Shown here: one piece after another, positions 14,738 through 54,768 of the stretch
Layout: each line of letters opens with the position of its first letter
How positions within the stretch are numbered: the stretch's first letter is position 1
DNA from: a virus
Reading direction: 5' to 3' (one strand)
Length of the DNA: 64,000 nt
IMG/VR virus record: IMGVR_UViG_3300001589_000003
Coordinates: 12,279 to 76,278 of that record
The notes under the pieces: model-generated
Told to the model about the DNA's origin: nothing
What the model saw: the letters and a program-made list of their open reading frames with translations, nothing else
Database searches by the model: none
Position numbers and translations under genes: made by a program

Positions 14738-15733
14738 TTAAAAGTTTAGTTTATCTATTATTGATTTGAACCATACCCCTATTTCGTAAGGGGGTGATTT
14801 TGTTACTGTTGTTCTAGCTTTGTTAATACAGTACTCTGACCAATCCTCATCATACCATAGTTTAAAAGAGTCTGGAACTCCTTGTATTCTAGCCATCTCT
14901 CTAGGTGATAACATGTGACCCCAATGATTAAACTGTCTGTTAGCTTTCCTTACTGTAAATGGGTATGCGTTGGCAAAATTACGATATACCCCTGGTTGGT
15001 TCTTCATACGCTCCCTATTTACAGGCCAACGATTTTCCGCCTTGAATTCCGTTAACCAGAGCTTTCTAGCTTTCTTAACAGATACCCTAGAATCATCGCC
15101 ATAATATAGGTTAATCATTTTCTTGTCATCTTCAGTAACATGACATATACTAGGATTATATTCCTCTAATCCTTTTATCAATTCACCTGACGTTTTGTAG
15201 ATGAAGTCGGTCTTTGGTAGTTTAAATTTTTTTATTGTATTCTTGGGTAAATCCTTATGAACCCCCACTATTACTAATCTAACCCTAGTTTTTTGAGAGT
15301 TACCCCAAGCTGATACTGACTCCTTAAAAGTAACTGTTCTGTAGTTTAAGAACTCATCCAGTAGGGTTGGGTAGTGCTCAAGCATCTTGGGTAAATTCTC
15401 CATCATAAAGAACTGAGGTTGGTAGTAGTTGATAGAATCCACAAATGCTCTTAGACTAGCGTTCTCGCTCGGATCACTCATCTTCTTAGCCCTAGAGTAG
15501 GCTAGTACTGATGAATGCCCACAGTCTGGAGCTCCAATAATGATATCTACCCCATCCTTCCTATACCTGACATCTGTTGTTTCATCATAGGATACGTTAA
15601 AATTTAGGTTCCATTGTTTTTGGTGGGTGGTGTGAAACACAGTTCTTGGTTCTATATTACCAACAAGTTGGTTTCTAAATGGGTGAAGTATTACACCGTT
15701 ACCTCCACATACTCCTAATGTTTTCAAGCTCAT
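14738..15733 (-). CDS. Atypical C5 cytosine DNA methyltransferase homologue
   Basis: GAPDC (motif IV), MENL (VI), QKTRVR (VIII), LSPREMARIQG (IX); motifs I and X are divergent. Confidence 0.75.
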   Translation of the reverse strand: MSLKTLGVCGGNGVILHPFRNQLVGNIEPRTVFHTTHQKQWNLNFNVSYDETTDVRYRKDGVDIIIGAPDCGHSSVLAYSRAKKMSDPSENASLRAFVDSINYYQPQFFMMENLPKMLEHYPTLLDEFLNYRTVTFKESVSAWGNSQKTRVRLVIVGVHKDLPKNTIKKFKLPKTDFIYKTSGELIKGLEEYNPSICHVTEDDKKMINLYYGDDSRVSVKKARKLWLTEFKAENRWPVNRERMKNQPGVYRNFANAYPFTVRKANRQFNHWGHMLSPREMARIQGVPDSFKLWYDEDWSEYCINKARTTVTKSPPYEIGVWFKSIIDKLNF

Positions 15734-15820
15734 ACAATTTATAAGATAAGTATTGTTTGACTATTATTTCACCTAGAGTTTTAATTTTTTTATTCAATTA
15801 TTTAATCATATCTTTATCAC

Positions 15821-16129
15821 ATGGAAATCAAAGAATATATAAAAAAGGCAAAAAAATATCAGAAGACCCCCAAACGGAAAAAGCTTGATAGACTAACTTA
15901 TTTAACTTTAGGATATGCGGGTGAAGGAGGAGAGGTAGCAGATGAGATTAAGAAGGCATGGAGAAATAAGTCGGGTAGGATAACTAAAGCACGTAGAAAC
16001 AAAATATTAATAGAAATGGGTGATGTCTTGAATATTACTTTTAGAATGATGAAGGAACTCGACTGTACCATGGAAGAACTTCTGGATATACACTTAGAAA
16101 AACTTAAAAATAAAGCTAAACCATTTTAA
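15821..16129 (+). CDS. MazG-like nucleotide pyrophosphohydrolase
   Basis: LGYAGEGGEVADEIKK...EMGDVL. Confidence 0.8.
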   Translation: MEIKEYIKKAKKYQKTPKRKKLDRLTYLTLGYAGEGGEVADEIKKAWRNKSGRITKARRNKILIEMGDVLNITFRMMKELDCTMEELLDIHLEKLKNKAKPF

Positions 16130-16130
16130 C

Positions 16131-16313
16131 ATGAATGCAAAGAATATTATGTCAATCGCAGGGTACTGGGTTACGTTCTACATTATACACATAGATATAG
16201 TAGAACTAGTAGGAAAGGACACCAAATACTATTGGATAATGATTTTAAAATTAGTAATATTATCACTTATGGCCTTCCTTAGAGGGTTCAACAATAAAAC
16301 TTTACAAATATGA
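16131..16313 (+). CDS. Small membrane protein
   Basis: Two hydrophobic segments. Confidence 0.45.
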   Translation: MNAKNIMSIAGYWVTFYIIHIDIVELVGKDTKYYWIMILKLVILSLMAFLRGFNNKTLQI

Positions 16314-16897
16314 AAAAACTATGGTGCCAATTTATACTTTGGCTTTTTAACAAGAACCTAATGCTCATCAATGGAGAAGTTGATGAACGGGGTAAGGTTA
16401 CAGTACATGTGGGTATTGATTCCAAATACGAACACCCACTAGGTAAGATTCAGGTGGATAGACTCTTTCACATACCAGATTGGAGATACAAAGCAGATTG
16501 GATCAATACGGAGGGCGAATATATGGTCAGGCTACAAGATAACAATAAACCCAATTTGTTTATGGAGCATATAGCAACTCGAGATGATCTAACCTCTCAT
16601 TTTGGAAAAAACTTTAACCCATCTTCTGCAAAGTTGATTGCTGGCTGGTTATTTAAACATGTTCAACTATCTACAGGAGTAGCAGTGGATGTTATCGTTC
16701 GACCTAAGGGTATGGAGAAACAATTGTTCTTAGAAAATGTGAAGAGTGGAAAAATGAAAGCTGTTGAGTTTACTAGACCCATAGATTACATGAGAGTGGT
16801 GGATGTTAATATAGAAGCTTACTCTGATGTTGCTGCTCTTAATGATGCAGAAAAGTCAGAACTGAAAGCCTTTTTACATAAAGCAGATTTATCATGA
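16310..16897 (+). CDS. Hypothetical protein
   Basis: 195 aa ORF, coupled by ATGA overlap. Confidence 0.55.
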   Translation: MKKLWCQFILWLFNKNLMLINGEVDERGKVTVHVGIDSKYEHPLGKIQVDRLFHIPDWRYKADWINTEGEYMVRLQDNNKPNLFMEHIATRDDLTSHFGKNFNPSSAKLIAGWLFKHVQLSTGVAVDVIVRPKGMEKQLFLENVKSGKMKAVEFTRPIDYMRVVDVNIEAYSDVAALNDAEKSELKAFLHKADLS

Positions 16898-17048
16898 GCC
16901 ATATGAACAGACCCTTATCTAAATTGGATGATACCAAAGTACCCAAGAAAGTATATCACTCATGGGCATCTGGGGTTGATAATGATAAGGGTAGGAAAGT
17001 AAGACATCCTTATACTGAAGTGGGGTTCAAATTTGACAAAGACAAGAC

Positions 17049-17369
17049 ATGAAAGATTCAGAGAAATTAAAACTCTTAGCTAACTGGTTTGATTTAAGAG
17101 ATAAGGAACAACCTATATTTAAAGGTAGTGGTACAGAAGTTCAAACAGACCTTAGAAGAATAGCTAGAAGCTTAGAAATAGATGAAAGCATAACCCAAGT
17201 TCCTGTAAATACTAGGCAAGTGGTAGATGTGGATGTTATCACTGGGTTTAATGCAAAAACCCTACGTGAAAATCTACTGAGAGCTTATGATGATGGTTTT
17301 GAGATAGTATCTAACTTAGCTGGTGATGCTAGACTAGGTTATTCAATTATTGTACATAAATATAAATAA
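17049..17369 (+). CDS. Hypothetical protein
   Basis: ORF track. Confidence 0.5.
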   Translation: MKDSEKLKLLANWFDLRDKEQPIFKGSGTEVQTDLRRIARSLEIDESITQVPVNTRQVVDVDVITGFNAKTLRENLLRAYDDGFEIVSNLAGDARLGYSIIVHKYK

Positions 17370-17898
17370 CATGCAAAAAGAAAGAATACCCAAAGAATTA
17401 AAAGGAGCACTGATCTGGTTAAGTATGTCAATAATACTTGGGTTCGCAGTCATATCCTTCAGTGAGAAGATAAATGGGCCGAATGCCTTTTTTAATAATT
17501 GGTGGCCTGTATTAGTAGGACTATCAATTATGGTACTAGGTATAACTAATGTACATGCTTGGCGAGAGTCCAAGAGAATTCGTAAAGGAGCCCATATAAA
17601 GGTTCAGTTCCTTAGGGCTATAGTGATATCATTAATTTCATTAGGGCTAACTATGTATGCACCTGCTCCAATTATCAAATGGCAATTCTTTATAAGTATC
17701 TGTTCTTTTCAGATCGGTATATTTATGTTAGCCTTTGATTACTTATTCAACTATTACAAAGGCAATGAATGGAGCTATTTTGGAACAGAATCAGTTCTGG
17801 ATGTTTTCAATGCTAAAATACCCATATGGTTAAACATCTTTTTGGAGGTATCATTTCTAATTGGAACTATATGGGCTTTTGATAAGTATATTGTATAA
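17350..17898 (+). CDS. Multi-pass membrane protein
   Basis: About five TM segments. Confidence 0.6.
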   Translation: MYININNMQKERIPKELKGALIWLSMSIILGFAVISFSEKINGPNAFFNNWWPVLVGLSIMVLGITNVHAWRESKRIRKGAHIKVQFLRAIVISLISLGLTMYAPAPIIKWQFFISICSFQIGIFMLAFDYLFNYYKGNEWSYFGTESVLDVFNAKIPIWLNIFLEVSFLIGTIWAFDKYIV

Positions 17899-17901
17899 TA
17901 A

Positions 17902-17977
17902 GGCAGAGGATAGCATAGCTGACAAATGCGCTACCCATACAGGGTAGAGATCGTGGGGTAAGAGCTCACCTTCTGCC
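17902..17977 (+). tRNA. Degenerate tRNA-like element, anticodon TAC (Val)
   Basis: Stems GCAGAGG/CTTCTGC, GCAT/ATGC, CTACC/GGTAG and GTGGG/CTCAC; non-canonical A33 and T-loop. Confidence 0.55.
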
Positions 17978-18305
17978 TAGAAATTTTAGAACACTCGATG
18001 GATATGTAAACCGGTGGTCGGGTCTGAACGAACGGTATAGGGGTTAATCAGAGTGAGGCATCTGTCGGGTATATGATTAAATGTATTCGTCTCAATGATT
18101 AATCATCAGGCCATTTTTTAACTTTAAATCTAATAAACATGAGAATTTTAAATGCATTCTTTTATATATTCTGCATCCTGTGGGTAGTTGCTACTCTATC
18201 TGTAGTGATTTGGATGATCACTAATTATAATCATTACGGATGGATTCTTTTAATATCACTAGCAGTTGCTGGGTATATGGTGCATAGAGTACATAACCCC
18301 AGGCA

Positions 18306-18623
18306 TTGATGGTAGAATTTAAGAACGGTACTAGAATAGAATCACCCAACCTAAGTGGACAAATAGCCATAACCGAAGAGATGGTAAAATATAATGCTAT
18401 GGGTTGGAAGGCTGAAGACTTGTTTAAAGCTGACCTTATCGAGAACACCAATATCGACCGTGACAATCCGCAAGGTTGGTATGGTTGGAAAGTGAGCTTG
18501 GGAGTATACTACTTCATCTGGAACTCACAGCCTGCAAATCCCACTAAAAAAGAAATTGCCATGATCCGAACTATGCTTCAAAGAGATGGCTATGAAGTTG
18601 AACCTTTATCACTTTTATTTTAA
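18306..18623 (+). CDS. Hypothetical protein
   Basis: ORF track; start uncertain. Confidence 0.45.
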   Translation: MMVEFKNGTRIESPNLSGQIAITEEMVKYNAMGWKAEDLFKADLIENTNIDRDNPQGWYGWKVSLGVYYFIWNSQPANPTKKEIAMIRTMLQRDGYEVEPLSLLF

Positions 18624-18682
18624 AAACCATAAGAACACTTAAATCATTTAACACAGACACAATAGATAAGTTAGTCAATGCG

Positions 18683-19000
18683 ATGAACACTATATTAAGT
18701 CAACCAGGTAAATTTAATATTCACTTACTAATGAAGGGCTTAGAAGCACATGTATACCTATCCACCTCTTTACAGAGTATGGGTCTAGTGATACAAGTGA
18801 GACCAACTAGGTATGAAGTCAATAGGGATGCTATAAAATACTACACCCCCAACCCAAGTACCCTTCGGATGACCAAGGGACATCCCTTAGCTATCTTAAT
18901 ACTTAAGCAGTATAACCTTCACAAGGATAGGTCTAATCTTAACTTTGCCTTAACTAAACTCAAAAAGAAATATGGACGATTTAACGAAAAAAGTACATAA
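18683..19000 (+). CDS. Hypothetical protein
   Basis: ORF track. Confidence 0.45.
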   Translation: MNTILSQPGKFNIHLLMKGLEAHVYLSTSLQSMGLVIQVRPTRYEVNRDAIKYYTPNPSTLRMTKGHPLAILILKQYNLHKDRSNLNFALTKLKKKYGRFNEKST

Positions 19001-19199
19001 GATTCTTGTGAAAAAATACGGTCAAGAATTTGATAAAGGGTGGTTTGAAAACGGAACTTTATTTAAAAACATAATTAAAGCAACCGAAGAAGCATTAACT
19101 ATACCCGATGTTAACAAATCTGTTTGTGTACAGACTGGATTAGAATGTGGTTTTCCTTGCCATAGTGAATGCCCTTTATATGATAAGCTGAAACCTTAA
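18972..19199 (+). CDS. Hypothetical protein with Cys-rich C-terminus
   Basis: ORF track. Confidence 0.5.
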   Translation: MDDLTKKVHKILVKKYGQEFDKGWFENGTLFKNIIKATEEALTIPDVNKSVCVQTGLECGFPCHSECPLYDKLKP

Positions 19200-19366
19200 T
19201 GAATATGAAAAATACATTTGATTACACAGCCAAGAGCAAAGAAGGAAATGACATCAATGGACAAGTGTTAGCTGAATCACACGCTGATGCTTATGACTAC
19301 TTATGTGAACAAGAGTACACAGAAATTAATGTTAAACGACATTTTGAAGTGGACGAGCTTCGTTAG
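19199..19366 (+). CDS. 55 aa protein resembling the PilC/GspF N-terminal domain
   Basis: Translated by hand: MNMKNTFDYTAKSKEGNDINGQVLAESHADAYDYLCEQ...; TAATG coupling. Confidence 0.45.
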   Translation: MNMKNTFDYTAKSKEGNDINGQVLAESHADAYDYLCEQEYTEINVKRHFEVDELR

Positions 19367-19377
19367 TAGGCTTATTA

Positions 19378-19450
19378 CCTACAACGCTCATGAATATAAG
19401 GCGTGTGGGCTGGTTTTGCGTTGTAAATGCCTTTATATTTAATGTTATCA
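19378..19450 (+). repeat. attC-like imperfect hairpin
   Basis: CTACAAC ... aatataaggc / gcctttatatt (one extra base) ... GTTATCA. Confidence 0.4.
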
Positions 19451-19487
19451 CACGTTTATTATGGTAGGAAACTTTTAAGAAATAAAT

Positions 19488-19883
19488 ATGAATAAAGTAG
19501 AGAAAGCCCTAAAGGTTGTAGATTACTCATCTTACAACCTAATTGCCCATTACCATGATAAGGAGTTTAGTCATACTATACACATCATGTTTAAGAATGG
19601 TTCAGGCTATTGTAGAGTTTATTGGTTCGATGATGACCCAGTCAATATCTACCTAGAATACCTAACCGTTAGTAAGGCTTTTCAGAAGCAGGGTAAGGGA
19701 GCACATCTCCAGGTTTTAAGGGAATCCATAGGTAGAGCAATTGGAGCAACCAAATCTAATCTGTGGGTAATGGAAGGTACGTGGATGCAAGAATGGTACA
19801 GAAGGAGAGGCTACGTTGATACTGTACCACATGAGAAAGAGCCTGGTAGTATTTGGATGGAAAAGAACATTAGAACTAGATAG
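19488..19883 (+). CDS. GNAT-family acetyltransferase
   Basis: LTVSKAFQKQGKG motif A and WYRRRGY. Confidence 0.75.
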   Translation: MNKVEKALKVVDYSSYNLIAHYHDKEFSHTIHIMFKNGSGYCRVYWFDDDPVNIYLEYLTVSKAFQKQGKGAHLQVLRESIGRAIGATKSNLWVMEGTWMQEWYRRRGYVDTVPHEKEPGSIWMEKNIRTR

Positions 19884-20250
19884 AGTTATGAGAAACTATA
19901 TGAAGCCCCAGAAGAAGAGAAACCGGTGGGACCCTTATAACCCCAAAGTATCACTTAGAGTCAAGAACGCTTATAGGAAGGTAGGGTTCACTATGACGAG
20001 GCTGGAAGATACATGCCCTACTTGCATGGGTGATAGGGAACTATGTAGAGCCAAGAAAGTCAAGGTTGAGGTTAATAACTTTATGGTTATATATTGTTCT
20101 AAAAGCTACTACATACTAGTATACAAAAAGATGTCAACCCTTGGCAAGTACCTAGAACGAATTGTTCTGGATTATCCGAAACCCTTAGGAGTTTGCCTGA
20201 AAATTCCCGTACTAAAAAAGGCACACGGTGTGAATAGAGGATATAAAAAT

Positions 20251-20289
20251 GAGGAAAGGAATAGGGGATCAATCCCTATCCAATCCCTC
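20251..20289 (-). terminator. Hairpin terminator at the convergence of plus and minus genes
   Basis: ggaatagggga-tcaa-tccctatcc stem; T-run follows on the minus strand. Confidence 0.5.
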
Positions 20290-20306
20290 ATGCATCAATC
20301 AATAAT

Positions 20307-20717
20307 CTATCCTATAATTGATTTAAGATAATCCAAAAGATTCTTGCAATCTTTGAGATCAATCTCATTCCTTGAAGATGAGAAATTCTCTATCTTAAAA
20401 TCTTGGATTTTCCAATTCTCTTTATAGAATTCCATAAATGATTCAATTGAGATCAATCTCTCTTCATCTGATCTATCTTTTCCAAGGATATCATTGATAT
20501 ATCCTCTTAATCCTCTTCTGATCTTCGATCTCTTTTTCTTCTTATCCTCTGATCCTAATGCATCTAATCCCTTATATATGGATTTAGATGATCCCTTGGC
20601 ATCTTCCTTATCCAATAGAGATTTCTTTCCTTTGGATAGATCAATCTTGATATTAGATGCATTCAATGCATCATTAGATTGAGATTCTTTCTTTGCATCC
20701 TTTAATTGATTTTTCAT
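20307..20717 (-). CDS. Basic putative pre-early protein lacking Thr and Val
   Basis: 136 aa ORF inside the island with its own promoter-like repeat. Confidence 0.75.
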   Translation of the reverse strand: MKNQLKDAKKESQSNDALNASNIKIDLSKGKKSLLDKEDAKGSSKSIYKGLDALGSEDKKKKRSKIRRGLRGYINDILGKDRSDEERLISIESFMEFYKENWKIQDFKIENFSSSRNEIDLKDCKNLLDYLKSIIG

Positions 20718-20742
20718 GATATTAGATTTAATTGATTAATAA

Positions 20743-20995
20743 ATTATTGATTTTCAAATATTATAAATGATTTTGGATTATCCTATATAAATGATTAAAA
20801 AGATTAATCCCTCTATAAAGATAGATATTCCCATGATGAATTTAAATTTCATGATCTTAATTTCTTTTCTTGATAATCCGATAGATTCCTGAATGATGAT
20901 TTGATTTTTCATGATCTTGATTTATTTAATTGATTATTGATTTTCAAATATCTAAATAAATTCTGGATTATCCTATATAAATGATTAAAAAGATT
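20743..20995 (-). promoter_or_regulatory. Tandem duplicated promoter-like blocks (20743-20805 and 20933-20995)
   Basis: 63 bp near-identical direct repeats, each with ATATTTG upstream of an MKNQ-starting ORF. Confidence 0.65.
20778..20912 (-). CDS. 44 aa membrane peptide lacking Thr and Val
   Basis: Translated by hand: MKNQIIIQESIGLSRKEIKIMKFKFIMGISIFIEGLIFLIIYIG. Confidence 0.55.
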   Translation of the reverse strand: MKNQIIIQESIGLSRKEIKIMKFKFIMGISIFIEGLIFLIIYIG

Positions 20996-21194
20996 CTCGG
21001 TAATTTCTCTCCTAACTCATGGACAATTCCGGTCGGCTGGTCTCATACACAAAGAAGGCCTGTAGCGCAGTACTTGGCCTCAGACCCTTTTATTCTTTGT
21101 AGTATTGGAATTATATGGAAGTGAATAAGATATTCGTATTTCGTGATCTAATCCACTAGAGATATGAGTGGGTATGCCTATTTCTAACCGAAGA

Positions 21195-22019
21195 TTAATC
21201 TATAATCTCTCCGTCATCCTCTCTTCTACCTTCATGGGTACCAGGCCCCTTACCCTTCTTTCTTTTCTTGGGTTCAAGGCTTATGGCCTCAGACTTAAGG
21301 TTCCAGCCCCTTTGCTTAGTTGCCACAATCTCCGGTACATCACCCTCTAGGTATTGAGCCCCCAGAGCCTCCTGTTGGGTACCGCTCTCTAGTAATGGTT
21401 GCTCTCTCTGGGCATCTATCATTTTCACAGCCTCATTGGTACCTATGTAGTTCTGGTTGTTGGCCTGTTGGTTATTATTGTTAATAACAGTAGTAGGGTC
21501 TGATGGTGTAAGAGTCTTGACTAAGTCCGCAATTGGCTTAAGACTATCCATTTGGTTCTTGATGGCTCCATTCAACGCTGATGTAAGGAATGGTACGTAG
21601 CGATCTCCTTGCTCACGCTTGAGCACCTGAACTTGGTTCAAAGCCGTGCCCCGGTCAGCCAGAGCCCCTTGAACTGTCATAGCCAACAAAGCCCGATATG
21701 TATCTTGTAACCCATCCTCTCCGTCACCTATTGCTGTCATACTCCTTACGACCTTGGTTGTGGCTTTTATGACTCTACCAACAGGCATATCAACGAAGTC
21801 TGCTAACTCTGTAATAGATATCACCTTGCCATTCACTTGATATCCATCCTCTATATATCTATGCAGTATTCTCTCTTGTATTCTCTTGTAGAGTTTTTCT
21901 CTTTGTTTTTGGTCATCTTCAACATGATAGGCTTTCATTGCCATGGTTAGTCCTGCGGTTCTTGGTACCCTAACCTTTCCGTCATCTACAGGCTTCTTTC
22001 TTTGTTTAGTCTTTTTCAT
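21195..22019 (-). CDS. Candidate terminase small subunit / DNA-binding protein
   Basis: HTH-like ITELADFVDMP, helical core, TVINNNNQ segment; no TerS next to TerL. Confidence 0.35.
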   Translation of the reverse strand: MKKTKQRKKPVDDGKVRVPRTAGLTMAMKAYHVEDDQKQREKLYKRIQERILHRYIEDGYQVNGKVISITELADFVDMPVGRVIKATTKVVRSMTAIGDGEDGLQDTYRALLAMTVQGALADRGTALNQVQVLKREQGDRYVPFLTSALNGAIKNQMDSLKPIADLVKTLTPSDPTTVINNNNQQANNQNYIGTNEAVKMIDAQREQPLLESGTQQEALGAQYLEGDVPEIVATKQRGWNLKSEAISLEPKKRKKGKGPGTHEGRREDDGEIID

Positions 22020-22184
22020 TGTCTTGTGGTATTATGGTCATGTTAGTAAACTCTGGTGCTTTGTTATGTAGTGCTACAATGTCCACCCTCATAATGTAGT
22101 CTTGATATAGTGTTCCATCCTCGTCTACACTCATCCCATCTGGTACTGGTGTTATAGTTATATCGATGTCCTTATCTTTCTTCA
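22006..22184 (-). CDS. Hypothetical protein (approximate start MKKDKDID)
   Basis: ORF track. Confidence 0.4.
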
Positions 22185-22189
22185 TTTCT

Positions 22190-22504
22190 TTAGTGTTTAT
22201 GGTCTGGAGCAGTCCTGGTGTCTGAATACTCCACATTTGCTAGGTAATCATAGTACCAGGCCTTCCAATATTCTTCCTCTGATGCATCGAATGACCAAGC
22301 TTCCCAACCTTTACCTTGTATGATTGCCTCCTTGATCTCTTCATCATGACTACCTCTCATATCTACATGATCACCATTGAAGGTAACTTGGTGCTCATTC
22401 ATTTCTTTGAACCAATTTTCTTCATCCAAATAATTATCTATAAATGAATAATCTTTGATCTGCAACCCTTCTTCAATTAATGCATCCTCTCTTAAATTTT
22501 CCAT
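22190..22504 (-). CDS. Acidic early protein (start MENLRED)
   Basis: ORF behind an AC/GT-free promoter patch. Confidence 0.55.
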   Translation of the reverse strand: MENLREDALIEEGLQIKDYSFIDNYLDEENWFKEMNEHQVTFNGDHVDMRGSHDEEIKEAIIQGKGWEAWSFDASEEEYWKAWYYDYLANVEYSDTRTAPDHKH

Positions 22505-44639: not shown

Positions 44640-45526
44640 TTTAAAGTTTTAAATGGTCTAATAAATGAATTGCCCATTAGTTTTGTCATATTATACTTTC
44701 TGGCAAGTCTGTTGAATTTTTCAACATTAAGTTTCGGGTTTTTACCCCCTATGTATTCAGTTTTGAGTTGATCTTTAAATTTGGAGTAGAAGTATCTCAA
44801 GTCAATCAACACTCGGCATATATCTATCAACTCTAGTAACTTATCTCTCTTTATTATAGTATGATCATCATTTGATTTCAAGAAGTTCGCTAAACTCCCA
44901 TATTTCTCAAGTAATTGTGCTGCCTTAGTAGGACCTATACCTGGGTAACCTGGTATGTTATCAGAGTTGTCTCCTATGAGGGTTAACCAATCAACTGTGT
45001 TATGAGCATGGTAACCTTTCTCTTCAAAACAATTTTCTTCGGTTATGATGGTTTTCTTTTTCCTCTTGTCATTGAAGATACTAACGTTAGCATCTATGAG
45101 TTGGTCAAAGTCTTTATCATTACTGATTATGATGACATTGGTAAAACCGTTCTTACCTGCTAGTTTGGTTAACTTGTAAATCATATCATCAGCTTCACCT
45201 TTGCTGTTGAATATCTGCTTTACCCCTAGATGCTTAAACATCTTCTGTACAATGCTCTTTTGTTTTAAGAAGTTCTTGTAGTCAGTTAAAGATTTATGGG
45301 CTCTCTCCTTATAATTGGGTAATACCTTTACCCTCTCCTTAGAGTGTCCCCCATCCCATACCAGTATCATCTCGTCTGGGTTGAATCTACTGATGTAACT
45401 TCTGACCATGGTTACTAACCCATATATTATTGACACTACAAAATTCTTATAGGATAGCCTCGAGTAAGCATGATAAGCTTTCCAAGCTGAATTGTTACTG
45501 TCTACTATTACTAATGTCTTACCCAT
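44636..45526 (-). CDS. 5'-3' exonuclease / flap endonuclease
   Basis: EADD, SNDKDF, GDNSDNIPGYPGIGPTKA. Confidence 0.88.
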   Translation of the reverse strand: MGKTLVIVDSNNSAWKAYHAYSRLSYKNFVVSIIYGLVTMVRSYISRFNPDEMILVWDGGHSKERVKVLPNYKERAHKSLTDYKNFLKQKSIVQKMFKHLGVKQIFNSKGEADDMIYKLTKLAGKNGFTNVIIISNDKDFDQLIDANVSIFNDKRKKKTIITEENCFEEKGYHAHNTVDWLTLIGDNSDNIPGYPGIGPTKAAQLLEKYGSLANFLKSNDDHTIIKRDKLLELIDICRVLIDLRYFYSKFKDQLKTEYIGGKNPKLNVEKFNRLARKYNMTKLMGNSFIRPFKTLK

Positions 45527-46083
45527 CTATAACCTCCTGTCTTTTTTCTACGTCCTGCTATACAACTACCTATATTTTGTCTTGAACAATTGTTATCTTC
45601 AGCTCCTTCTCTTGCTGTTGGGTAGTATTTTCTATTACCTTCCCCATCTACCCTGTAAAGTCCTTTAGCATTGGGTGAGTTCTCCCCTCTCAACAATTTG
45701 TGAGCTTCTGATAACTTCTTCCTGTGTGATAAAGAGAAATTAGCACCCTTCATGGTCAATGACATGTTCTTTGACCTGTCTCTGTAAGTAGTGTTCACTA
45801 AGTCAAACCCAAGTTCTACCATCCAATCAATCCAAGTATTTTCAGCTTTAAGCTTTTTGGACTCAGGTACAATATCCAATAGTTCAATCGTTGGCTCCTC
45901 ACCCAAGGAGTTCAACCATACTACTCTCTTATTAGTTTTTCTACCTTTACCACCCTTAAATGACTTAGCTTCTTTCATATGCCTACTTAACCTATGTTTT
46001 AAAGATTCCCCAGTTTGCCCAACATACCTAGGTAAAAAGGTTATTGGGTCTTTCAATACATATATTCTAACAATATCTTCCAT
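45511..46083 (-). mobile_element. Free-standing GIY-YIG homing endonuclease
   Basis: RIYVLKDP...RYVGQT; HRKKLSEAH NUMOD3-like; C-terminal HTH-like. Confidence 0.8.
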
Positions 46084-47447: not shown

Positions 47448-48203
47448 TTACTTTTTTTTACCTTTCTTGTCCTTTTTCTTTTCAGGCTTCTCTTCTTTCT
47501 CCTTTTTGTTCTTGTCTTTCTTACCTTTCTTTTTCTTAGGCTTATCCTCTGGACTGATGTTCAAAAAGTTATTAAGTATAGTCTCTGCCTCTTCCTCTGT
47601 CTTAACATCCTTTCTTACCATTGCCTCAACATCCCAAATTTTATTGTACTCCTTATCTAATTTAGTAGGTTTACATGGAACTACTGAATACTCTGTGTCC
47701 ATCATTGTTGAACCAGTCCTAGTTATCTTTAGGTCATACCCATTTTTAGGGTGAGTGAAGTCTCCCTGTTCCTCATCCAAGAAATAATCAATTAAGTTCT
47801 GAGCTGTACCTGATGTTAGAAGTAATAGCTTACCAGATTTTTGTTTGTTGATCTTCTTACCTTTTAGATCATCGAATAACACTACTGGAATAACATACTT
47901 CTTCTTCGGCTTTAATTTCTTAGCAAGGTCTTGGTCATCATCATCACCCTTCTTTAGTTTCTCGTACATATCTATAATGGGGCATGGTTCTCCAAAAGTT
48001 GCTGCCGATATAACTCCCTTAACATCACCTCCAAAATAGAACTGAGTTACCTCCAACCCAAATTCTTCTGACTCATCTACAGGTAGAGGTCTAACTCTAA
48101 TTGTTTCGTCTGCCTTAATAAAGATCATGTTACCTCCCTCTGATCTGTCTTTCATCGCCTTCTTACGGGCTTTCATTTTTTCTTTTCTGTTCAAATCTGA
48201 CAT
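47448..48203 (-). CDS. gp32-like single-stranded DNA-binding protein
   Basis: IRVRPLP, GEPCPI, GYDLKITRTG...TEYSV. Confidence 0.7.
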   Translation of the reverse strand: MSDLNRKEKMKARKKAMKDRSEGGNMIFIKADETIRVRPLPVDESEEFGLEVTQFYFGGDVKGVISAATFGEPCPIIDMYEKLKKGDDDDQDLAKKLKPKKKYVIPVVLFDDLKGKKINKQKSGKLLLLTSGTAQNLIDYFLDEEQGDFTHPKNGYDLKITRTGSTMMDTEYSVVPCKPTKLDKEYNKIWDVEAMVRKDVKTEEEAETILNNFLNISPEDKPKKKKGKKDKNKKEKEEKPEKKKDKKGKKK

Positions 48204-48221: not shown

Positions 48222-48668
48222 TTAACGTTCATTTCTAATGTTTGCTGATATGGTTTGTAGTAAGTCCTTTCGTATTTCAAATGATCTTACACAAACCTCA
48301 AGTAAATCTTTAAGTTCTTCAAGCTCTAGGACACTGCGTTCCATTGACTTCACCTTTTTATCCTTTGTCACCAAGTAAGCCTCTGCCTCCTTTAATGATG
48401 TATACCCTTTGTTCTTCTTAACAATGGGTATCATTCTAGTTTTCTTAGCTGATAGTTTTTTGTGGAGTTCCTTATGTTTTATAAGTATCTTCTTATGAAG
48501 CATAGCTACAAATGCATAACTTGTAGCATGGTTCTTCAATTGCTTTATCATGTTTTCTTTGTCTATCTTTAACTCTTTATAGACATTGAATTCAAAGACC
48601 TCACCATTATAAGAGACCTTAATCTCCATAACTTTTGAGGTCTCTGCATACTTATATAAATTACCCAT
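48222..48668 (-). CDS. UvsY-like recombination mediator
   Basis: Helical; C-terminal RKDLLQTISANIR; synteny with SSB and RecA. Confidence 0.5.
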   Translation of the reverse strand: MGNLYKYAETSKVMEIKVSYNGEVFEFNVYKELKIDKENMIKQLKNHATSYAFVAMLHKKILIKHKELHKKLSAKKTRMIPIVKKNKGYTSLKEAEAYLVTKDKKVKSMERSVLELEELKDLLEVCVRSFEIRKDLLQTISANIRNER

Positions 48669-49285
48669 TAACCTAATATGTTTATTATTTTATTCTTTCT
48701 ATCATCCAATAGTAATGGGGTAATTAAATGTATTTTAGTATTACTATTCACCCTACTCATTTCTGCTTGAAACTGGTAATGATATAGGGAAAAAATATGG
48801 GTCACCATGTGTTGATAAACTTGAGAAGTTAACCTTGAACCATTATCTTCCACAAAATCAAACATAAAGGGTACTACAAATATGTGATCCAGTGGTATCA
48901 TAGCTTGAATACAAGCTTCATAAAAATCATGGTTTATTCCATCATTTTGATACAACCCAGCTTGTAACATATAATATACAAAGTTATCTATTGGGCTTCT
49001 ATCAGTAACAAACACTTGGTTGTCCTTTATAAGCTCTGACCTTCTGGTTAGTATCATTCTTTGCAACTCATATCCAAATTCTGGGTTATTGTGAGACTCC
49101 TTTATTACTTTAGCATGACCTTCCCGCCCTTCAACCCCAAACCTACTAGCTAGGTATTCTCTGTCGTCATCAGTTTTTAAATCCCCAGATGAACCAGACA
49201 AATGGGGTAAATTATAATGTTCTGCAACCCATTTTACTAGGGTTGTCTTGCCTGAGCCGCTGGCTCCAGAAAATGCAACTTTCAT
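48668..49285 (-). CDS. P-loop nucleotide (dNMP) kinase
   Basis: GASGSGKTT, TDRSPID, EDNGSR. Confidence 0.7.
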   Translation of the reverse strand: MKVAFSGASGSGKTTLVKWVAEHYNLPHLSGSSGDLKTDDDREYLASRFGVEGREGHAKVIKESHNNPEFGYELQRMILTRRSELIKDNQVFVTDRSPIDNFVYYMLQAGLYQNDGINHDFYEACIQAMIPLDHIFVVPFMFDFVEDNGSRLTSQVYQHMVTHIFSLYHYQFQAEMSRVNSNTKIHLITPLLLDDRKNKIINILG

Positions 49286-49300: not shown

Positions 49301-51544
49301 TTAGTTTAACCATTTATTATAATCCTCCTTTATACTATAACCTTCTAACCCTGCCCAGTGTTTACCAACCTCAGCACCCATCTTTAAAAATACCTTTTCC
49401 ATCTTACAACCAAAGTACTTCTCTGATTCAGGGCTGGAGCATACCTCAACTATTTTAGGTACTGCTAAATGTATAAACTCTGGCTTAACATAGAAACCTA
49501 TTGAATCATGCACTGTATATGCTTGAGGTTTATATTTTTCTATGTCAGTGAGTTTTAACTCACCCTTATTAACTAAATCTCTTAATGCTATGGATGATAG
49601 TTGAGTAAAGTCTGAGGCTGCACTCTGAATAGGGGCATTGATTGAGTCCCTCATAGCCTTCCTTCTCACACCGTCATCATTGGAATATATGCTACCCAGC
49701 CTTCTCTTCCTACCAAAGATGTTCATAACATACCCATGTTTCATAACATATTTTTCTTGGTGTTTGAACCATGCTCTAACGCCTGGGTACATCTCCAACC
49801 ATTCGTTCTTAAAAATTTGAGCCTCTTCTTTAGTTACTATGTCTCCTGGTTCTGATAGGGTTCCAGCAAGCATCTTCGCTGATTGTTGATAGAGTATACC
49901 AAAGTTTATAACTTTAGCTCTCTTCTTTAGTTTGGTCCAGTATAGCCAGTCTGGATGGTCTTTGTTATCCAGTATAACTTTAACCTCATTATACATATCA
50001 AGTTTGCCAACTGATTTGCAGGCAGTAGCAACATGGATGTTATATTTTCTAGCAAAGATGTCTATCATTGCTTGATCATTTGCTATCTCTGCTACTACCC
50101 TTAACTCAGCCTGACCATAATCTACCTCTAATATTAGATGGTCTTTGGGTGGTACAAATGCAGTCTTTATCAATGGGGTTGTGGTAGCTCTAGGAATGTT
50201 CTGCATATTTGGGTCCCTAGATGATAACCTCCCAGTAACGGTGCCATGTATAAAGTAATTACCATGAAGTGTGTTGTGTTTTGTTAATTTATCTAAGATA
50301 CCTACCATGTAAGTCGAGTGCATCTTAGTTAACTCCCTATAGTCTAGTAGGTTCTGAATGAAACCAGTTTTATCTATAAGTCTTAGCTCTAATAAAACCT
50401 CTTCATCCGTGGAAGGTCTGTCCGTTTCTTGTTTAGTTTCCTTATCCTTGGTGTACTTTATAATCTTAAACCCTAACCCCTTCGGTGAGGTGAATAGGAG
50501 TTCTATCATTTGATTGGGTGATGCAAAGTTTACATCATCTACTACTTCATTCTTTGAAACTAACTCCCCTGCTATATACCTACTTATCTTCTCATATCTA
50601 TTCCTAACAGCCATATCCACATTTTTCATGGGCTCTTTTCCAGGCTTCAAAGGTTTGCCTTTCTTTATTAGTTTTATCTCTTCTTTTGTTTTAGTTATTA
50701 GCTTCTCTATGTGAGACTGTACTCTCCATTTCTGGAATTTCTTTATAACTTTTTCTTTCTTTAATAGGTCATGAGTTATAGCAATCTTTTTACCCTGTTC
50801 CTTTTCCACCTCGGCTAGATAGGGTTTATCTATCACCATCCCTACAAATTCTGATTCTGCTAGTACTCTAGTTTGCATCATGCACATGTTTCTAAATAGA
50901 TCATAAAACTTGTGCTTCCAGAGTAGTCTCTCCAATACTAACATCAACCTTAAAGTTAAATCGCAATCCAGTACGCAATATTTTGATAAGGATTTTATAG
51001 GTATATTCCCCCACCCCTTATACTTGGCTATCATACCATGTACTTCATCCTCATAGTCTGCAAACTCTGGTAGTAAAGATTTAACTAAGGATTTAAGATC
51101 ACTAGGTGGTGTCTCTTCTAAAAGGTATTTAGCAAGCATTGCATCGAAGAGTCTACCTCTCATCCTAATACCATACCTTAAGAACCATTTGTATTCAAAC
51201 TTTAAATTGAATGCCACCTTTATAACATTTGCATTCTCACATATATGTTTTCCGAAATATTTTAGTATTTTCTTAGCCTCTTTTCTAGTAAAGCATGAGT
51301 CCTTATGAAATAGAGGTATAGCATATCCAGCACCTGGTTGAAATGAAACTCCTAATATGGTAGGTTCATCTTTCTTGTATTGAAACCCCACTGGTTTCTT
51401 ATCCCCTTTAGATGTCAAGGGTCCTTCTGGTCCTGTAGCTTTAGTTTCAAAGTCAATGGATGCATACCCAGTCTCTTTACACCAAGCTACTATCTGTCTT
51501 ACCTCTTCAAAGGTAGATATTATTTTATACCTCTTTTTACCCAT
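49301..51544 (-). CDS. polA: Family A DNA polymerase with 3'-5' exonuclease
   Basis: DFET, TGRLSSRDPNMQNIP, DYGQAELR, AKVINFGILY, VHDSI. Confidence 0.93.
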   Translation of the reverse strand: MGKKRYKIISTFEEVRQIVAWCKETGYASIDFETKATGPEGPLTSKGDKKPVGFQYKKDEPTILGVSFQPGAGYAIPLFHKDSCFTRKEAKKILKYFGKHICENANVIKVAFNLKFEYKWFLRYGIRMRGRLFDAMLAKYLLEETPPSDLKSLVKSLLPEFADYEDEVHGMIAKYKGWGNIPIKSLSKYCVLDCDLTLRLMLVLERLLWKHKFYDLFRNMCMMQTRVLAESEFVGMVIDKPYLAEVEKEQGKKIAITHDLLKKEKVIKKFQKWRVQSHIEKLITKTKEEIKLIKKGKPLKPGKEPMKNVDMAVRNRYEKISRYIAGELVSKNEVVDDVNFASPNQMIELLFTSPKGLGFKIIKYTKDKETKQETDRPSTDEEVLLELRLIDKTGFIQNLLDYRELTKMHSTYMVGILDKLTKHNTLHGNYFIHGTVTGRLSSRDPNMQNIPRATTTPLIKTAFVPPKDHLILEVDYGQAELRVVAEIANDQAMIDIFARKYNIHVATACKSVGKLDMYNEVKVILDNKDHPDWLYWTKLKKRAKVINFGILYQQSAKMLAGTLSEPGDIVTKEEAQIFKNEWLEMYPGVRAWFKHQEKYVMKHGYVMNIFGRKRRLGSIYSNDDGVRRKAMRDSINAPIQSAASDFTQLSSIALRDLVNKGELKLTDIEKYKPQAYTVHDSIGFYVKPEFIHLAVPKIVEVCSSPESEKYFGCKMEKVFLKMGAEVGKHWAGLEGYSIKEDYNKWLN

Positions 51545-51956
51545 ATTTTTTTACATCTACTCCTGCTCTAAGTAACACTTTTAAAGGCTCTGTATCTCTG
51601 AACTCTTCTGAGTATTCTACAACCTTTATCCCAGATTGAATTATTGCCTCTGCACATTTTATACATGGGCTGTGTGTACAGTATATTGTTGCCCCTTGTA
51701 GTTTTATACCATTCTTTGCAGCAAAGTATATTGCATTAGCTTCAGCATGTATCGCTCTCTTGCAGGTCTCACCCAAAAAACAATTTATATCATTACATTC
51801 GTGGTCATCTTTAACTGGACCATTATACCCAGTAGCTATAATCCTATTTTCTATGGTTATTACTGATCCCACTTGTAACCTACCACATGTACCCCTTTGT
51901 GACATTAACTTTGCCATCTGTAGGTATAGGTCTCTTCTTGTTATTCTCTCAATCAT
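51537..51956 (-). CDS. dCMP deaminase
   Basis: TGYNG, HAEANAI, PCIKC. Confidence 0.9.
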   Translation of the reverse strand: MIERITRRDLYLQMAKLMSQRGTCGRLQVGSVITIENRIIATGYNGPVKDDHECNDINCFLGETCKRAIHAEANAIYFAAKNGIKLQGATIYCTHSPCIKCAEAIIQSGIKVVEYSEEFRDTEPLKVLLRAGVDVKKYG

Positions 51957-51973: not shown

Positions 51974-52732
51974 TTAGTAATTATCATAGACCTCAAAATC
52001 ACCTTGAAAGCAGTGTAGATTAGCTATATGCATATTTATATGCCCAGGTCTTAATCTCTTACCCACTCTACCCATGACATGGTATAATAACCTAACCGCC
52101 ATGTATATATCATCTCTAAAATGCCTGATAACATCACATGATCTAATGTAATATGTTATATCCATCCTACCATTTTTTACTTGAAATAGATACCCCAAAG
52201 TACATGGTACTCTCTGACCTCCTAATGGTCCTGTATCTTCTGGGAACCATATGGGTAAGAATGCTTTTCTAGTGTGTTTCTGGTCTTTCAATAGGTTGAT
52301 TACATCATCTAAATCTCCATACTCATACCTAATACCATGTAAGCTTAAATGTTTATGGGCTACGTGTTTAGGCCATATTCTTTCTGGGTAGGTATGAGAG
52401 AATTGCTCATCTTTTACATGTTTTGCGTTAGCTCTTACACCAAAAGGCCATCTTACATGAGATGGAGGAGGATTCAAGGGTTTACCTGATACCCTCTCTA
52501 AAAAATGCTCATCGGCCCATGGTAAATTGGGTTGGCATTGGATTACTAACTCATTGATATTGCTAGGTACTGGTGCTCTAAATGATATACCCAATACTTC
52601 TACCATCTTATCTAATGGAGTTGTGGATTGCCAGGAGTTACCTTGATGGGTTGTACCTGCTACTACTAAATGATCTTTACAAGCTTTTATAGCTCTACTT
52701 ATACTTGAGTACTCTTTTATGGTTGGTGTCAT
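51974..52732 (-). CDS. Thymidylate-synthase-fold enzyme 1, dCMP-type
   Basis: VPCT catalytic Cys; RSCDVIRHFRDD with Asp at the specificity position. Confidence 0.8.
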   Translation of the reverse strand: MTPTIKEYSSISRAIKACKDHLVVAGTTHQGNSWQSTTPLDKMVEVLGISFRAPVPSNINELVIQCQPNLPWADEHFLERVSGKPLNPPPSHVRWPFGVRANAKHVKDEQFSHTYPERIWPKHVAHKHLSLHGIRYEYGDLDDVINLLKDQKHTRKAFLPIWFPEDTGPLGGQRVPCTLGYLFQVKNGRMDITYYIRSCDVIRHFRDDIYMAVRLLYHVMGRVGKRLRPGHINMHIANLHCFQGDFEVYDNY

Positions 52733-53607
52733 CTCTTTCTAGTGTTATGTATTCTTAATTCTTGTGGGGTTTGTACATCTTTTGGAATTAAGTCTTGGTC
52801 AGGTCTAAGTTTTAAAGTCTTAGCCTTCATTGATTTAACTCCACTTATTGGTAAGCCATCCTTACCCTTCTGTATCTGCATTACTGACCTCCTGTTAACC
52901 CTAAACATTATTGATTTAGGGTCAGGGTGGTTCATGTATTCTTTGAATTTCTTTTTAACATTCACGTGAAACTTATAATCATCCTGATCTGTACCCTTTA
53001 ATGACTTTTTTAATAGCTTCATTATAGGTTTCACATTATTGTACATCACAAAACTCTCTGCTGTAATATAAAAGGATGGAGCAAATAAGTGCACCTCAAA
53101 TTCATTGTGACCATATATGTATTCCCCTATCCTTTGTACTAATAAGAAATCAAACAGTAACCTCTTAGTAACTTCGGATGTTCTGATCTGGAATACAAGA
53201 ATTGGTTTGGGTTGATAAGGTCTTTTAGTAAATGTAATTGCCACTAAGCAATCCTTACCTGATCCGTGAGAGTTGTCGAAGTGATAAGTATAGTTATACA
53301 TACTCGCTTTCTTAGCTACCCTCTCCGAGATAGTAGCACGTAAGAGATCAAGATAGTTAAAGTCTACATAATTATTCACTAGAGCAGTCCATTTTTGAAG
53401 AGAATACCCCAAGGTTATACCAAAGTCAAACTCTGGGTCAACCCATGCCTCCTCCATGGTTACATAGTTATTAAAGCTTAGCATCTTTGACCCTGCTAAC
53501 CCTCCTCCTGTTGGTGCTATCTTACCTTGCTCAAGAAAAAGATACTCATTGATACCCTGCCAACCTTTCTGTAGGTTTTTAAACTTTAGTTGTGTTATGT
53601 GATGCAT
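52729..53607 (-). CDS. Divergent thymidylate-synthase-fold protein 2
   Basis: KDCLVAITF and IRTSEVTKRLLFDF with TS-like spacing. Confidence 0.55.
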   Translation of the reverse strand: MHHITQLKFKNLQKGWQGINEYLFLEQGKIAPTGGGLAGSKMLSFNNYVTMEEAWVDPEFDFGITLGYSLQKWTALVNNYVDFNYLDLLRATISERVAKKASMYNYTYHFDNSHGSGKDCLVAITFTKRPYQPKPILVFQIRTSEVTKRLLFDFLLVQRIGEYIYGHNEFEVHLFAPSFYITAESFVMYNNVKPIMKLLKKSLKGTDQDDYKFHVNVKKKFKEYMNHPDPKSIMFRVNRRSVMQIQKGKDGLPISGVKSMKAKTLKLRPDQDLIPKDVQTPQELRIHNTRKR

Positions 53608-54295
53608 ATTCTTTTGATATGGTTTCTAGGGTTGAATAAATATTTAATGGATGAGCACCTACTGAATCTAAGAATTTAGTAAAGTATAGCCAAGCCTCCA
53701 TCAAGTTTTTACATAAAGTTTGGTAGTCTCCTCCCCACCCTTGAAGAGCTGACCTTAATACACATGCAAATTTAAACTGATCTACTTGGTTATGGTGATC
53801 AGTTTCTATTGAATATTTTCTACCCATCAAACCCAAGGTAAAATCTTTTTCTACATCCTCATCAGTGTAGATGGAGTAGGATGAGTAATTAGCTATCCTC
53901 ATGGTATCATCAAATATATTGGAATGCCTACCATAAGCTAAAGATGTTTTCAGAGCATCATCAAAAAATATACCTGATAAATTTCTTTCCCTCAGTAGTA
54001 TATCATAATACTCATTAATGTTTTCAGGCATTATGTTATTGTCTTTCATAAGTCCTATAAATACCCCCAAAGCTTTTGCTAGTGCTGTATTATAATCTTC
54101 TAATAGTTCCTTTACATCTGGTCCCTCCTCTGGGTTATAACCAGCATCAAATACATGTTGTATTTTGGATTGAATGTACCATGCTTCTGATAAATGAGTC
54201 ATTATACATACCTCAGCTCCTATATTACATTCAACTATTGGGTCTATAAACTCATAGATGCCTTCTAGTAACATACCCTTATTAAATAACTCCAT
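53579..54295 (-). CDS. Possibly degenerate all-alpha dUTPase/dCTPase-like protein
   Basis: Helical; YNTALAKALGVFIGL resembles an EElaDalhF helix without the acids; synteny. Confidence 0.35.
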   Translation of the reverse strand: MELFNKGMLLEGIYEFIDPIVECNIGAEVCIMTHLSEAWYIQSKIQHVFDAGYNPEEGPDVKELLEDYNTALAKALGVFIGLMKDNNIMPENINEYYDILLRERNLSGIFFDDALKTSLAYGRHSNIFDDTMRIANYSSYSIYTDEDVEKDFTLGLMGRKYSIETDHHNQVDQFKFACVLRSALQGWGGDYQTLCKNLMEAWLYFTKFLDSVGAHPLNIYSTLETISKEYASHNTTKV

Positions 54296-54300
54296 ACTAT

Positions 54301-54768
54301 CTATTTTAGTTTAATATAAATTTTGTCATCTACCTTTTTAACCTTGAGTTTACTAGAATCTTTTACTGCTTTTTGTATAAGTTTAGTTATCTCTGGTTTC
54401 TTAAGTAAGTTAGTAGGATCGAATTTTTTACAAACCTTTCTATGCAAACCCTTTAGATTCATCTTGTTTTTACCCTCTAACAACTCAATTATATACTTCT
54501 GTAGCTCTTCCATATCTATACTTACCTCCTCTAGGTCTTTAAAGTTACCCTTACTCTCTAGCTCTAGCCTAACCTTTGATTGGTACTGAGCACTTATGAT
54601 CATGCATATTTCTGCATCACCACACTGACCACATACTTTACTATCCACTGAGTGGTGCATACCAAAACATGGATCATCCCCTGAACCGAACATTTCTATG
54701 GTTATGGGTTTCATGAAATTAACCTCGCTCATATTTATTTTTTTACGTTTTTTTCTTTTGGGTTTCAT
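54301..54768 (-). CDS. Four-Cys metal-binding hypothetical protein
   Basis: DPCFG...CGQCGDAEIC. Confidence 0.55.
   Translation of the reverse strand: MKPKRKKRKKINMSEVNFMKPITIEMFGSGDDPCFGMHHSVDSKVCGQCGDAEICMIISAQYQSKVRLELESKGNFKDLEEVSIDMEELQKYIIELLEGKNKMNLKGLHRKVCKKFDPTNLLKKPEITKLIQKAVKDSSKLKVKKVDDKIYIKLK

Follow-up and report, generated by a model that had tools for sequence, protein, structure and literature searches.

An A-C- and A-G-C-free, putatively immediate-early transcription unit in a group of uncultured aquatic phages with probable cytosine-modifying enzymes

The DNA analyzed here (the window) is a 64,000-nt stretch comprising bases 12279–76278 of a 76,278-bp viral contig from a marine metagenome (IMG/VR record IMGVR_UViG_3300001589_000003; genome G0 below). 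One part of it, a 770-bp island at window positions 20231–21000, contains no AC or GT dinucleotide and no AGC or GCT, and coincides with a single transcription unit. Judged from the sequences of this phage and its relatives, strong selection against A-C and A-G-C on either strand across this one presumably immediate-early unit can be regarded as established. The original prediction, made from the sequence alone, had combined an AC-free island with a set of cytosine-modifying enzymes into a system of context-specific hypermodification with modification-free entry DNA. The island was borne out and so were the enzyme genes, but the link between them was not, and we tentatively favor the explanation that a host factor reads modified cytosine in incoming phage DNA.

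From local composition, 39 AC and 36 GT would be expected in the island of G0. The longest other gap between AC/GT sites in the window is 120 bp, the island is the sole such stretch in the 76,278-bp contig, and other dinucleotide pairs give no comparable outlier. Outside the island the frequency of AC/GT is near normal (observed/expected 0.91). The exclusion of AGC/GCT is seen from the GC dinucleotides retained: all 7 in the G0 island belong to TGCA or GGCA, and in the five islands described below 34 of 34 have the form [T/G]GC[A/C], with TGCA in 28 cases, while genome-wide 67% of GC sit in AGC/GCT. AT is enriched in the G0 island (142 vs. 100 expected). The island and its parts, from the outer promoter inwards, are as follows:

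20231–21000: island free of AC/GT and AGC/GCT, one transcription unit on the minus strand (770 bp; 0 AC, 0 GT)
20930–20995, minus strand: promoter-like repeat B, ahead of the small open reading frame (ORF), with one exact copy of a 32-mer (20964–20995)
20778–20912, minus strand: small upstream ORF of 44 amino acids (AA) with a hydrophobic C-terminal helix (membrane peptide)
20740–20805, minus strand: promoter-like repeat A, ahead of the main ORF, with the second copy of the 32-mer (20774–20805)
20307–20717, minus strand: main ORF P0005, a 136-AA basic protein with 18 homologues
20265–20287, minus strand: hairpin resembling a terminator, T-rich in its tail, immediately behind the main ORF

On one side AC/GT sites become as dense as usual again some 60 bp before the outer promoter box, on the other some 35 nt past the hairpin; the limits of the island thus coincide with one promoter-to-terminator unit. 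Because the untranscribed promoter is purged together with the transcribed part, and both strands are affected alike, these limits point to a constraint at the DNA level on both strands rather than to a purely RNA-level one. No Rfam match was obtained for positions 19500–22500.

The purge has overridden the composition of the encoded proteins. It excludes Thr and Val from both cassette proteins, and P0005 lacks His and Pro as well. In P0005 of G0 all 27 codons of the Asn/Asp/Tyr/His group are NAT. The main ORFs of the three complete island-bearing genomes use NAT for 82 of 82 NAY codons, although the genome uses NAC for 36%, and they are devoid of GGT, GCT and AGY, which elsewhere make up 45%, 45% and 30% of the Gly, Ala and Ser codons, respectively. 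These three ORFs differ pairwise at 111–120 nucleotide positions, and none of the differences creates AC or GT. The purge is maintained by selection at the DNA level and is not due to chance or drift. A search of a 5.8-billion-protein collection yielded the 18 homologues of P0005. In this family, 6 members (the window protein included) are free of both Thr and Val, 3 contain 1–2 of these residues and the rest 4–14. The protein is predicted to be disordered in its N-terminal half and to form a helical bundle towards the C-terminus (AlphaFold pLDDT 68); no family match was found, and comparison of the model with the PDB by Foldseek gave no match at E ≤ 0.001. The 44-AA peptide has counterparts of 59–60 AA in genome G002 and contig L092.

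This phage is a member of a group of 76–85-kb aquatic phages that are uncultured. For comparison we used seven complete genomes, of which G0, G002 and G005 bear an island and G001, G006, G007 and G009 do not. The purged islands of the diverged genomes G002 and G005 measure 784 bp and 743 bp, respectively. Two more were found in short contigs: that of L090 extends over 869 bp, after which three sites follow, and that of L091 over 482 bp or more. The same two-gene cassette is present in L092/L093 in a partly purged state, with 33 AC/GT vs. 95 expected; in L092, a 16-kb JGI contig, observed/expected is 0.35 in the cassette vs. 0.83 in the rest of the contig, which makes it useful as an evolutionary intermediate. 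Since L092 is partly purged and Thr/Val content varies among the P0005 homologues, the constraint is graded and lineage-specific; a graded purge fits a cost per site and a host-dependent pressure.

The distribution was followed further with the family of C5-cytosine methyltransferase homologues that head the late gene block of these phages. Co-occurrence of such genes with AC-free islands had been proposed as a check of the original prediction, and among the 49 IMG/VR loci of the family, the AC/GT-free island occurs in one clade only, in G0, G002 and G005. The methyltransferase tree joins these three in a single clade with L024, too short to be judged for an island, and the partly purged L092. 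No island is present in any other locus for which 6 kb or more of sequence lies upstream. Genes restricted to the island-bearing genomes are small unknown early ORFs only and are inseparable from shared ancestry. When the island-less genomes were scanned for every strand-symmetric 2- and 3-mer, no convincing purged motif emerged. Stretches without CC/GG that lie upstream of the methyltransferase gene in numerous relatives were considered as alternative islands and rejected, as these regions are extremely AT-rich and only 5–9 sites would be expected.

The genes with a probable or possible role in cytosine modification are the following:

51974–52732, minus strand: TS1, a thymidylate synthase (TS) homologue and probable C5-modifying enzyme of deoxycytidine monophosphate (dCMP), with Asp at N177
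52729–53607, minus strand: TS2, a TS-fold paralogue recognizable by structure only, with a 4-nt overlap with TS1
51537–51956, minus strand: dCMP deaminase, present in G0, G002, G005 and G009 and absent from G001, G006 and G007
49301–51544, minus strand: family A DNA polymerase (PolA) with a 3′–5′ exonuclease domain
48668–49285, minus strand: P-loop deoxynucleoside monophosphate (dNMP) kinase of the thymidylate type
44145–44639, minus strand: PRA-PH/MazG-type nucleotide pyrophosphohydrolase, candidate dCTP excluder, in G0 and G005 only
14738–15733, minus strand: divergent C5-cytosine methyltransferase homologue, first gene of the late lysis/packaging block

TS1 matches Pfam PF00303 (33.8 bits vs. 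a cut-off of 24.3), and its family profile matches TS chains in the PDB with E = 5e-17. HMMER alignment placed the Asp of TS1 at E. coli N177 (L. casei N229), as had been claimed, and the best PDB match of the family profile is the dCMP-methylating N229D mutant of the L. casei enzyme. Across the seven genomes the R-V-P-C motif with the catalytic Pro-Cys and the [D/N]-D-I motif are invariant, as are Arg174 at the L143 position, the Asp corresponding to D169 (Asp200) and the Asp at 177. Instead of His, Thr or Ser occupies position 147 (Thr in G0). According to published criteria, Leu at position 143 denotes a methyl product, Asp or Glu a hydroxymethylase, and D169N a 5-hydroxylase (PMC13326640). 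TS1 has no acidic residue at L143, unlike dCMP hydroxymethylases of the T4 gp42/MilA type, and neither TS1 (Asp200) nor TS2 (Glu145) has the Asn for Asp169 of 5-hydroxy-dCMP synthases. By these criteria dCMP is the probable substrate of TS1, with no 5-hydroxylase signature, and the Arg at position 143, being neither Leu nor Asp/Glu, points to neither a methyl nor a hydroxymethyl product. MetaGPA found that positions 177 and 147 separate modified-cytosine from unmodified phage contigs (PMC8670742); since TS1 has the Asp177 and non-His147 signatures, C5-substituted cytosine is likely to be present in virion DNA. In G0, G002 and G005, TS1 also has an insertion of about 25 residues before R-x-x-x-L-P-I-W, which is missing in the island-less relatives.

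For TS2, no Pfam or PDB match was found at the sequence level. The TS fold claimed for it was supported by its AlphaFold model (pLDDT 94.1), which Foldseek matched with probability 1.00 to the CMP hydroxymethylase MilA, the HY126 dCMP hydroxylase AfhB and the T4 dCMP hydroxymethylase (E = 6e-5 to 1e-3, TM about 0.4); the best matches are all cytosine-specific enzymes. Cys120, Arg142 and Asp153 are invariant in 59 relatives and Glu145 is nearly so. Alignment of the two families by hhalign was weak (E = 0.012) but fell on the expected active-site segment, where the conserved residues of TS2 lie. The TS2 family comprises 115 sequence clusters without annotation.

The methyltransferase homologue matches Pfam PF00145 (64.3 bits vs. 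a cut-off of 22) and keeps motifs VI (E-N-L), VIII (Q-K-T-R-V-R) and IX (P-R-E). The canonical motifs IV (P-C-Q), I (F-x-G-x-G) and X (G-N-x-V) are replaced by G-A-P-D-C-G-H, C-G-G-N-G and K-[ST]-P-P, respectively, all invariant in the family, in agreement with its description as non-canonical and with its place at the head of the late block. The dCMP deaminase, PolA and dNMP kinase were likewise present as claimed. A scan with Pfam/PHROGs covered about 60 ORFs, with only part of the small ones among them. It revealed no glycosyltransferase and no 5-hydroxymethyluracil (hmU)-DNA kinase, as stated in the original prediction, and no TET/JBP dioxygenase, CmoA (carboxy-S-adenosylmethionine (Cx-SAM) synthase) or CmoY (amide ligase).

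TS1 (with its Asp), TS2, the kinase, PolA, single-stranded DNA-binding protein (SSB), RecA, helicases and the methyltransferase homologue are core to all seven genomes. Hence G001, G006, G007 and G009 have TS1, TS2, the kinase, PolA and the methyltransferase homologue but no AC/GT-free island. Genomes with these genes but no island, or the reverse, had been named as evidence that would refute the proposed system; the former were found four times. These four complete relatives speak against the link between the enzyme set and the island: the set is at most necessary and not sufficient, and it is a group-wide feature separate from the island and of interest in itself. From the proposed system there remain its parts and a likely modified cytosine, but not the link or the AC-free promoters (see below). 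Its notion of modification-free entry DNA is also affected. If TS1 replaces every C before replication, the island is not free of modification but merely lacks one sequence context. For the entry part of that notion there are only indirect hints, from sequencing depth and contig breaks.

To look at the position of the island in the genome we used Logan contigs. Among public runs, the sequence was found in one DNA run, from a marine metagenome that may be the source sample, and in none of RNA. A 32-kb contig of depth 210 ends at 20803, and no contig covers the sequence past 21218. A 218-bp unitig at 20776–20993 has a depth of 454, 2.2 times that of the flanking contig, and the 32-mer, present twice in the assembly, has a depth of 850 (4 times). 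A collapsed terminal repeat over the promoter part of the island is a possible source of these 2.2- and 4-fold values. In addition, the contig ends of five independently assembled relatives, G001, G005, G006, G007 and G009 (L014–L018, L071–L089), are all no more than about 6 kb away from the homologue of the gene at 21195–22019, which adjoins the island site. Such clustering indicates either a physical terminus or an assembly-breaking repeat there. Depth and breaks together give a weak hint of a terminal position, from which the cassette may enter the cell first.

Promoter-like boxes of the TATATTTGA type, resembling the Bacteroidota TAnnTTTG element, recur ahead of at least 8 early genes and of both island ORFs. 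A strict TTG-N17-21-TAnnTTTG pattern is not enriched (9 vs. 7.7 in shuffled sequences). Early intergenic AC/GT have an observed/expected ratio of 0.66; over all intergenic sequence, the ratio is 0.86, 0.70 and 0.73 in the island-bearing genomes and 0.88, 0.82, 0.91 and 0.71 in the island-less ones. Several promoter-like sites contain AC or GT or have one close by. As intergenic depletion is no stronger with the island than without it, and several boxes lie at or near AC/GT, the AC-free host-type promoters of the original prediction were not counted as evidence.

The explanation that we prefer, although only tentatively, is that a host factor reads modified cytosine at A-C/A-G-C in incoming DNA and that the immediate-early cassette has been purged of those sites. 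We infer the modification, the reading agent, the first entry and the roles of the proteins in the following way. A C5-substituted dCMP is very probably made at the nucleotide level by TS1, perhaps with TS2, phosphorylated by the dNMP kinase and built into DNA by the phage PolA. The host factor would recognize the altered cytosine only in A-C or A-G-C and damage or block incoming virion DNA. The purged cassette, possibly located at or in a terminal repeat, would stay transcribable by host RNA polymerase right after entry, and its products would then neutralize the threat. The reader could be a host factor or a late enzyme of the phage itself. A context of just one or two bases is typical of nucleases, glycosylases and binders that depend on modification (type IV-like), and among the systems known to us only modification-dependent ones use so short a context, which is one reason to prefer a host reader. 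The other is that the purge is graded and follows lineage, and with it the host, rather than the shared enzyme set; a clade-restricted island together with group-wide enzymes is more easily reconciled with a host-specific reader than with an enzyme that the phages share. A first-injected region without the restriction motif suffices for escape from type I restriction (PMC12455610).

Several points weigh against this explanation. DNA modification is deduced here from enzyme genes and not from chemistry. The island-bearing genomes form one clade, so that every association of the island is phylogenetically confounded. The clue to the host consists of the Bacteroidota-like TAnnTTTG boxes only, whose strict pattern is not enriched, and nothing marks P0005, a basic protein with no fold match, as an anti-defense protein. 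The double depth could stem from co-occurring strains or extra tandem copies; the terminal overlaps of the relatives (79, 117, 123 and 127 bp) have the lengths of k-mers commonly used by assemblers and therefore show circular assembly, not true ends. McrBC (R-mC) and the MspJI family, as one- or two-base readers of modified C, would explain avoidance of a dinucleotide, but the R-mC recognition of McrBC-type enzymes includes G-mC and would also hit TGCA, which the islands keep, and we know of no modification-dependent enzyme, in these families or elsewhere, with the context A-C plus A-G-C. A reader cutting both strands would kill the phage via sites outside the cassette unless entry were staged. 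Tolerance of TGCA is explained neither by a host reader nor by modification of the DNA by the phage itself.

This last alternative is possible but doubtful. It holds that the late P-D-C methyltransferase homologue further modifies the TS-made 5-substituted (or plain) C at AC/AGC, that host RNA polymerase is blocked by the product and that the first unit has been purged for this reason. The gene is conserved and heads the late block, the purge runs exactly from promoter to terminator, as if passage of RNA polymerase mattered, and the island-bearing genomes have their own clade in the methyltransferase tree, which would allow a clade-specific change of target. Context-specific, post-replicative hypermodification with a phage C5-transferase is also known, both for CmoX, which with CmoA and CmoY gives 5-carboxymethylcytosine at GC (PMC12783734), and for the methyltransferase/TET pathway (PMC8256090). 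Yet the island is missing from four complete relatives that share this enzyme set, and the ORFs scanned include no transferase, dioxygenase, ligase or CmoA-like partner for a bulky group. A methyl group by itself is not known to halt RNA polymerase in bacteria, and a C5 that is already substituted cannot be methylated by a C5-transferase. Other early genes are rich in AC/GT although they, too, would have to be read from incoming DNA, sites on the non-template strand are purged as fully as those on the template strand, and AC/GT depletion in promoters is no stronger than in island-less relatives. Modification by the phage would thus need both a clade-specific change of the methyltransferase and a bulky group that stops RNA polymerase. 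A two-step form of it, in which hypermodification at A-C/A-G-C by the P-D-C enzyme renders virion DNA unreadable to host RNA polymerase except for a genome-end cassette whose products unlock the rest, is in our view unlikely.

A nuclease or binder acting on unmodified DNA at very short motifs, be it a host defense or a host-DNA-degrading nuclease of the phage, is improbable. Depletion of targets in first-expressed or leading DNA is known (PMC12455610), and the purge is strand-symmetric and graded among relatives. However, no classical restriction system recognizes only two bases, and with AC/GT at 0.91 observed/expected in the rest of the genome the bulk of the DNA would need protection, which again leads to modification.

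Three other explanations are each very improbable. Under selection at the RNA level, a transcript without AC and GCU (and without GU and AGC) would resist sequence-specific endoribonucleases, e.g., MazF-like or MqsR-like toxins. The avoided AC and GCU are classic toxin cleavage cores (MazF-like ACA and MqsR-like GCU, respectively) and the purge stops at the terminator, but the complements GU and AGC are equally absent and about 60 bp of untranscribed DNA upstream of the outer promoter box are purged too. The enrichment of AT in islands (142 vs. 100 expected in G0) would suit a mutational footprint left on highly transcribed DNA by a context-specific cytosine deaminase (AC, AGC to AT, AGT); such a process would require GT-to-AT changes on both strands at saturation, and it takes selection to account for the complete absence of the sites in five lineages, for a conserved protein recoded to do without Thr and Val, and for borders that fall sharply at promoter and terminator. 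As to a signal for replication or packaging, i.e., a zone without primase start sites or a structural element of the genome end, primases of the T7 and T4 types use GTC, GTT or GCT as template sites. The GTT/GCT sites of T4 primase are similar to the avoided G-T and G-C-T, and positions 20776–20993 have possible double coverage; against this, all GTN are absent and not one trinucleotide, the extent is that of the transcription unit and not of a repeat or end, and nothing suggests a reason to exclude priming there. We rejected avoidance of CRISPR PAMs, which would leave the rest of the genome unprotected, an AID-like WRC hot-spot pattern, since TGC is kept and CAC and GAC are purged, and general avoidance of type I half-sites, for which no rule requires AC.

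Among cases of target avoidance in phage DNA that is expressed first, the island represents an extreme and new form. It shares with the first-step-transfer region of T5, the early region of T7 with Ocr and Murciavirus (PMC12455610) a short first-expressed stretch that lacks the sites of a threat while the genome keeps them, as well as strong host-type promoters and small early proteins. It differs in that the target is a dinucleotide plus a trinucleotide and not a 4–8-bp motif, that amino-acid content has been reshaped, that the island protein has no known anti-restriction fold and that first entry is putative. In our literature searches no description was found of a total dinucleotide purge that overrides protein composition.

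The enzyme set, in turn, resembles those of T4, where cytosine is replaced before replication (dCTPase, the dCMP hydroxymethylase gp42, the dNMP kinase gp1 and dCMP deaminase), and of XP12, which synthesizes 5-methyl-dCMP, in the TS homologue with Asp177, the kinase, the deaminase, an own polymerase and a MazG/PRA-PH-type pyrophosphohydrolase as possible dCTP excluder. In contrast to these, TS1 has Arg at 143, where hydroxymethylases have Asp/Glu and the methylating TS has Leu, a second cytosine-type TS-fold gene overlaps TS1, and the ORFs scanned include no glycosyltransferase. With the 5-hydroxy-dCMP synthases RB69 gp48, DLP3 gp80 and HY126 AfhB (PMC13326640) the set shares a TS fold acting on dCMP, and AfhB turns up both among the top structural hits of TS2 and among those of the TS1 sequence profile; D169N is lacking, however, as are arabinosyl or other glycosyl transferases among the ORFs scanned. 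Like CmoX and the methyltransferase/TET/glycosyltransferase pathway (PMC8256090), these phages have a divergent C5-methyltransferase homologue that could set a short context, but its loop is P-D-C-G and not P-C-Q, the partners were not found among the ORFs scanned, and the family occurs also in many phages without a purged island.

The purge can serve as a sequence-only marker of something that reads phage DNA at a two-base context, which could be a new modification-dependent host defense or a new context-specific phage modification. It defines a motif (A-C, A-G-C) for native-DNA sequencing, and the cassette offers an experimental handle. Candidates for new nucleotide chemistry are this uncultured phage group with its tandem pair of cytosine-type TS-fold genes, the TS2 family (115 clusters) and the P-D-C subfamily of C5-transferases (49 viral loci).

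Nucleotide searches of a phage collection, for near and for distant relatives, yielded none, and protein-level searches gave matches only to records of uncultured phages, with no host or cultured relative. The late block runs leftwards from 15733 on the minus strand and comprises the methyltransferase homologue, endolysin, terminase, portal, protease and capsid genes. Small unknown genes are clustered on the plus strand at 15821–20331, a long minus-strand array of small early genes occupies 21.2–38 kb, and the genes for replication and nucleotide metabolism lie at 38–61 kb, with the SSB homologue at 47448–48203. One further pair of genes had been cited in the original prediction as sigma-like and NusG-like factors:

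38332–39998, minus strand: two conserved genes, sigma-70-like (329 AA) and antiterminator-like (226 AA), with weak signals

These are leads only, based on language-model features and a weak PHROG match to "antiterminator" (7e-5).

The first gene of the plus-strand cluster (15821–16129) has a sub-threshold match to MazG pyrophosphohydrolase (E = 3e-4) and is a candidate second NTP pyrophosphatase; a weak GNAT match was obtained for 19488–19883. A DUF7168 domain is present in two early paralogues (30123–30872 and 35021–35677). The large terminase (10603–13146) has 847 AA vs. about 500 in relatives and carries an HNH-endonuclease insertion, and the UvsW-like helicase (54782–57511) has 909 AA vs. 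about 480, with an intein carrying a LAGLIDADG homing endonuclease. Free-standing HNH/NUMOD genes are found at 40572–40949 and 45511–46083. CpG is strongly depleted across the group, with observed/expected values of 0.30 in G0 and 0.32–0.60 in relatives and a slight excess of TG/CA, which could reflect restriction avoidance or methyl-CpG decay.

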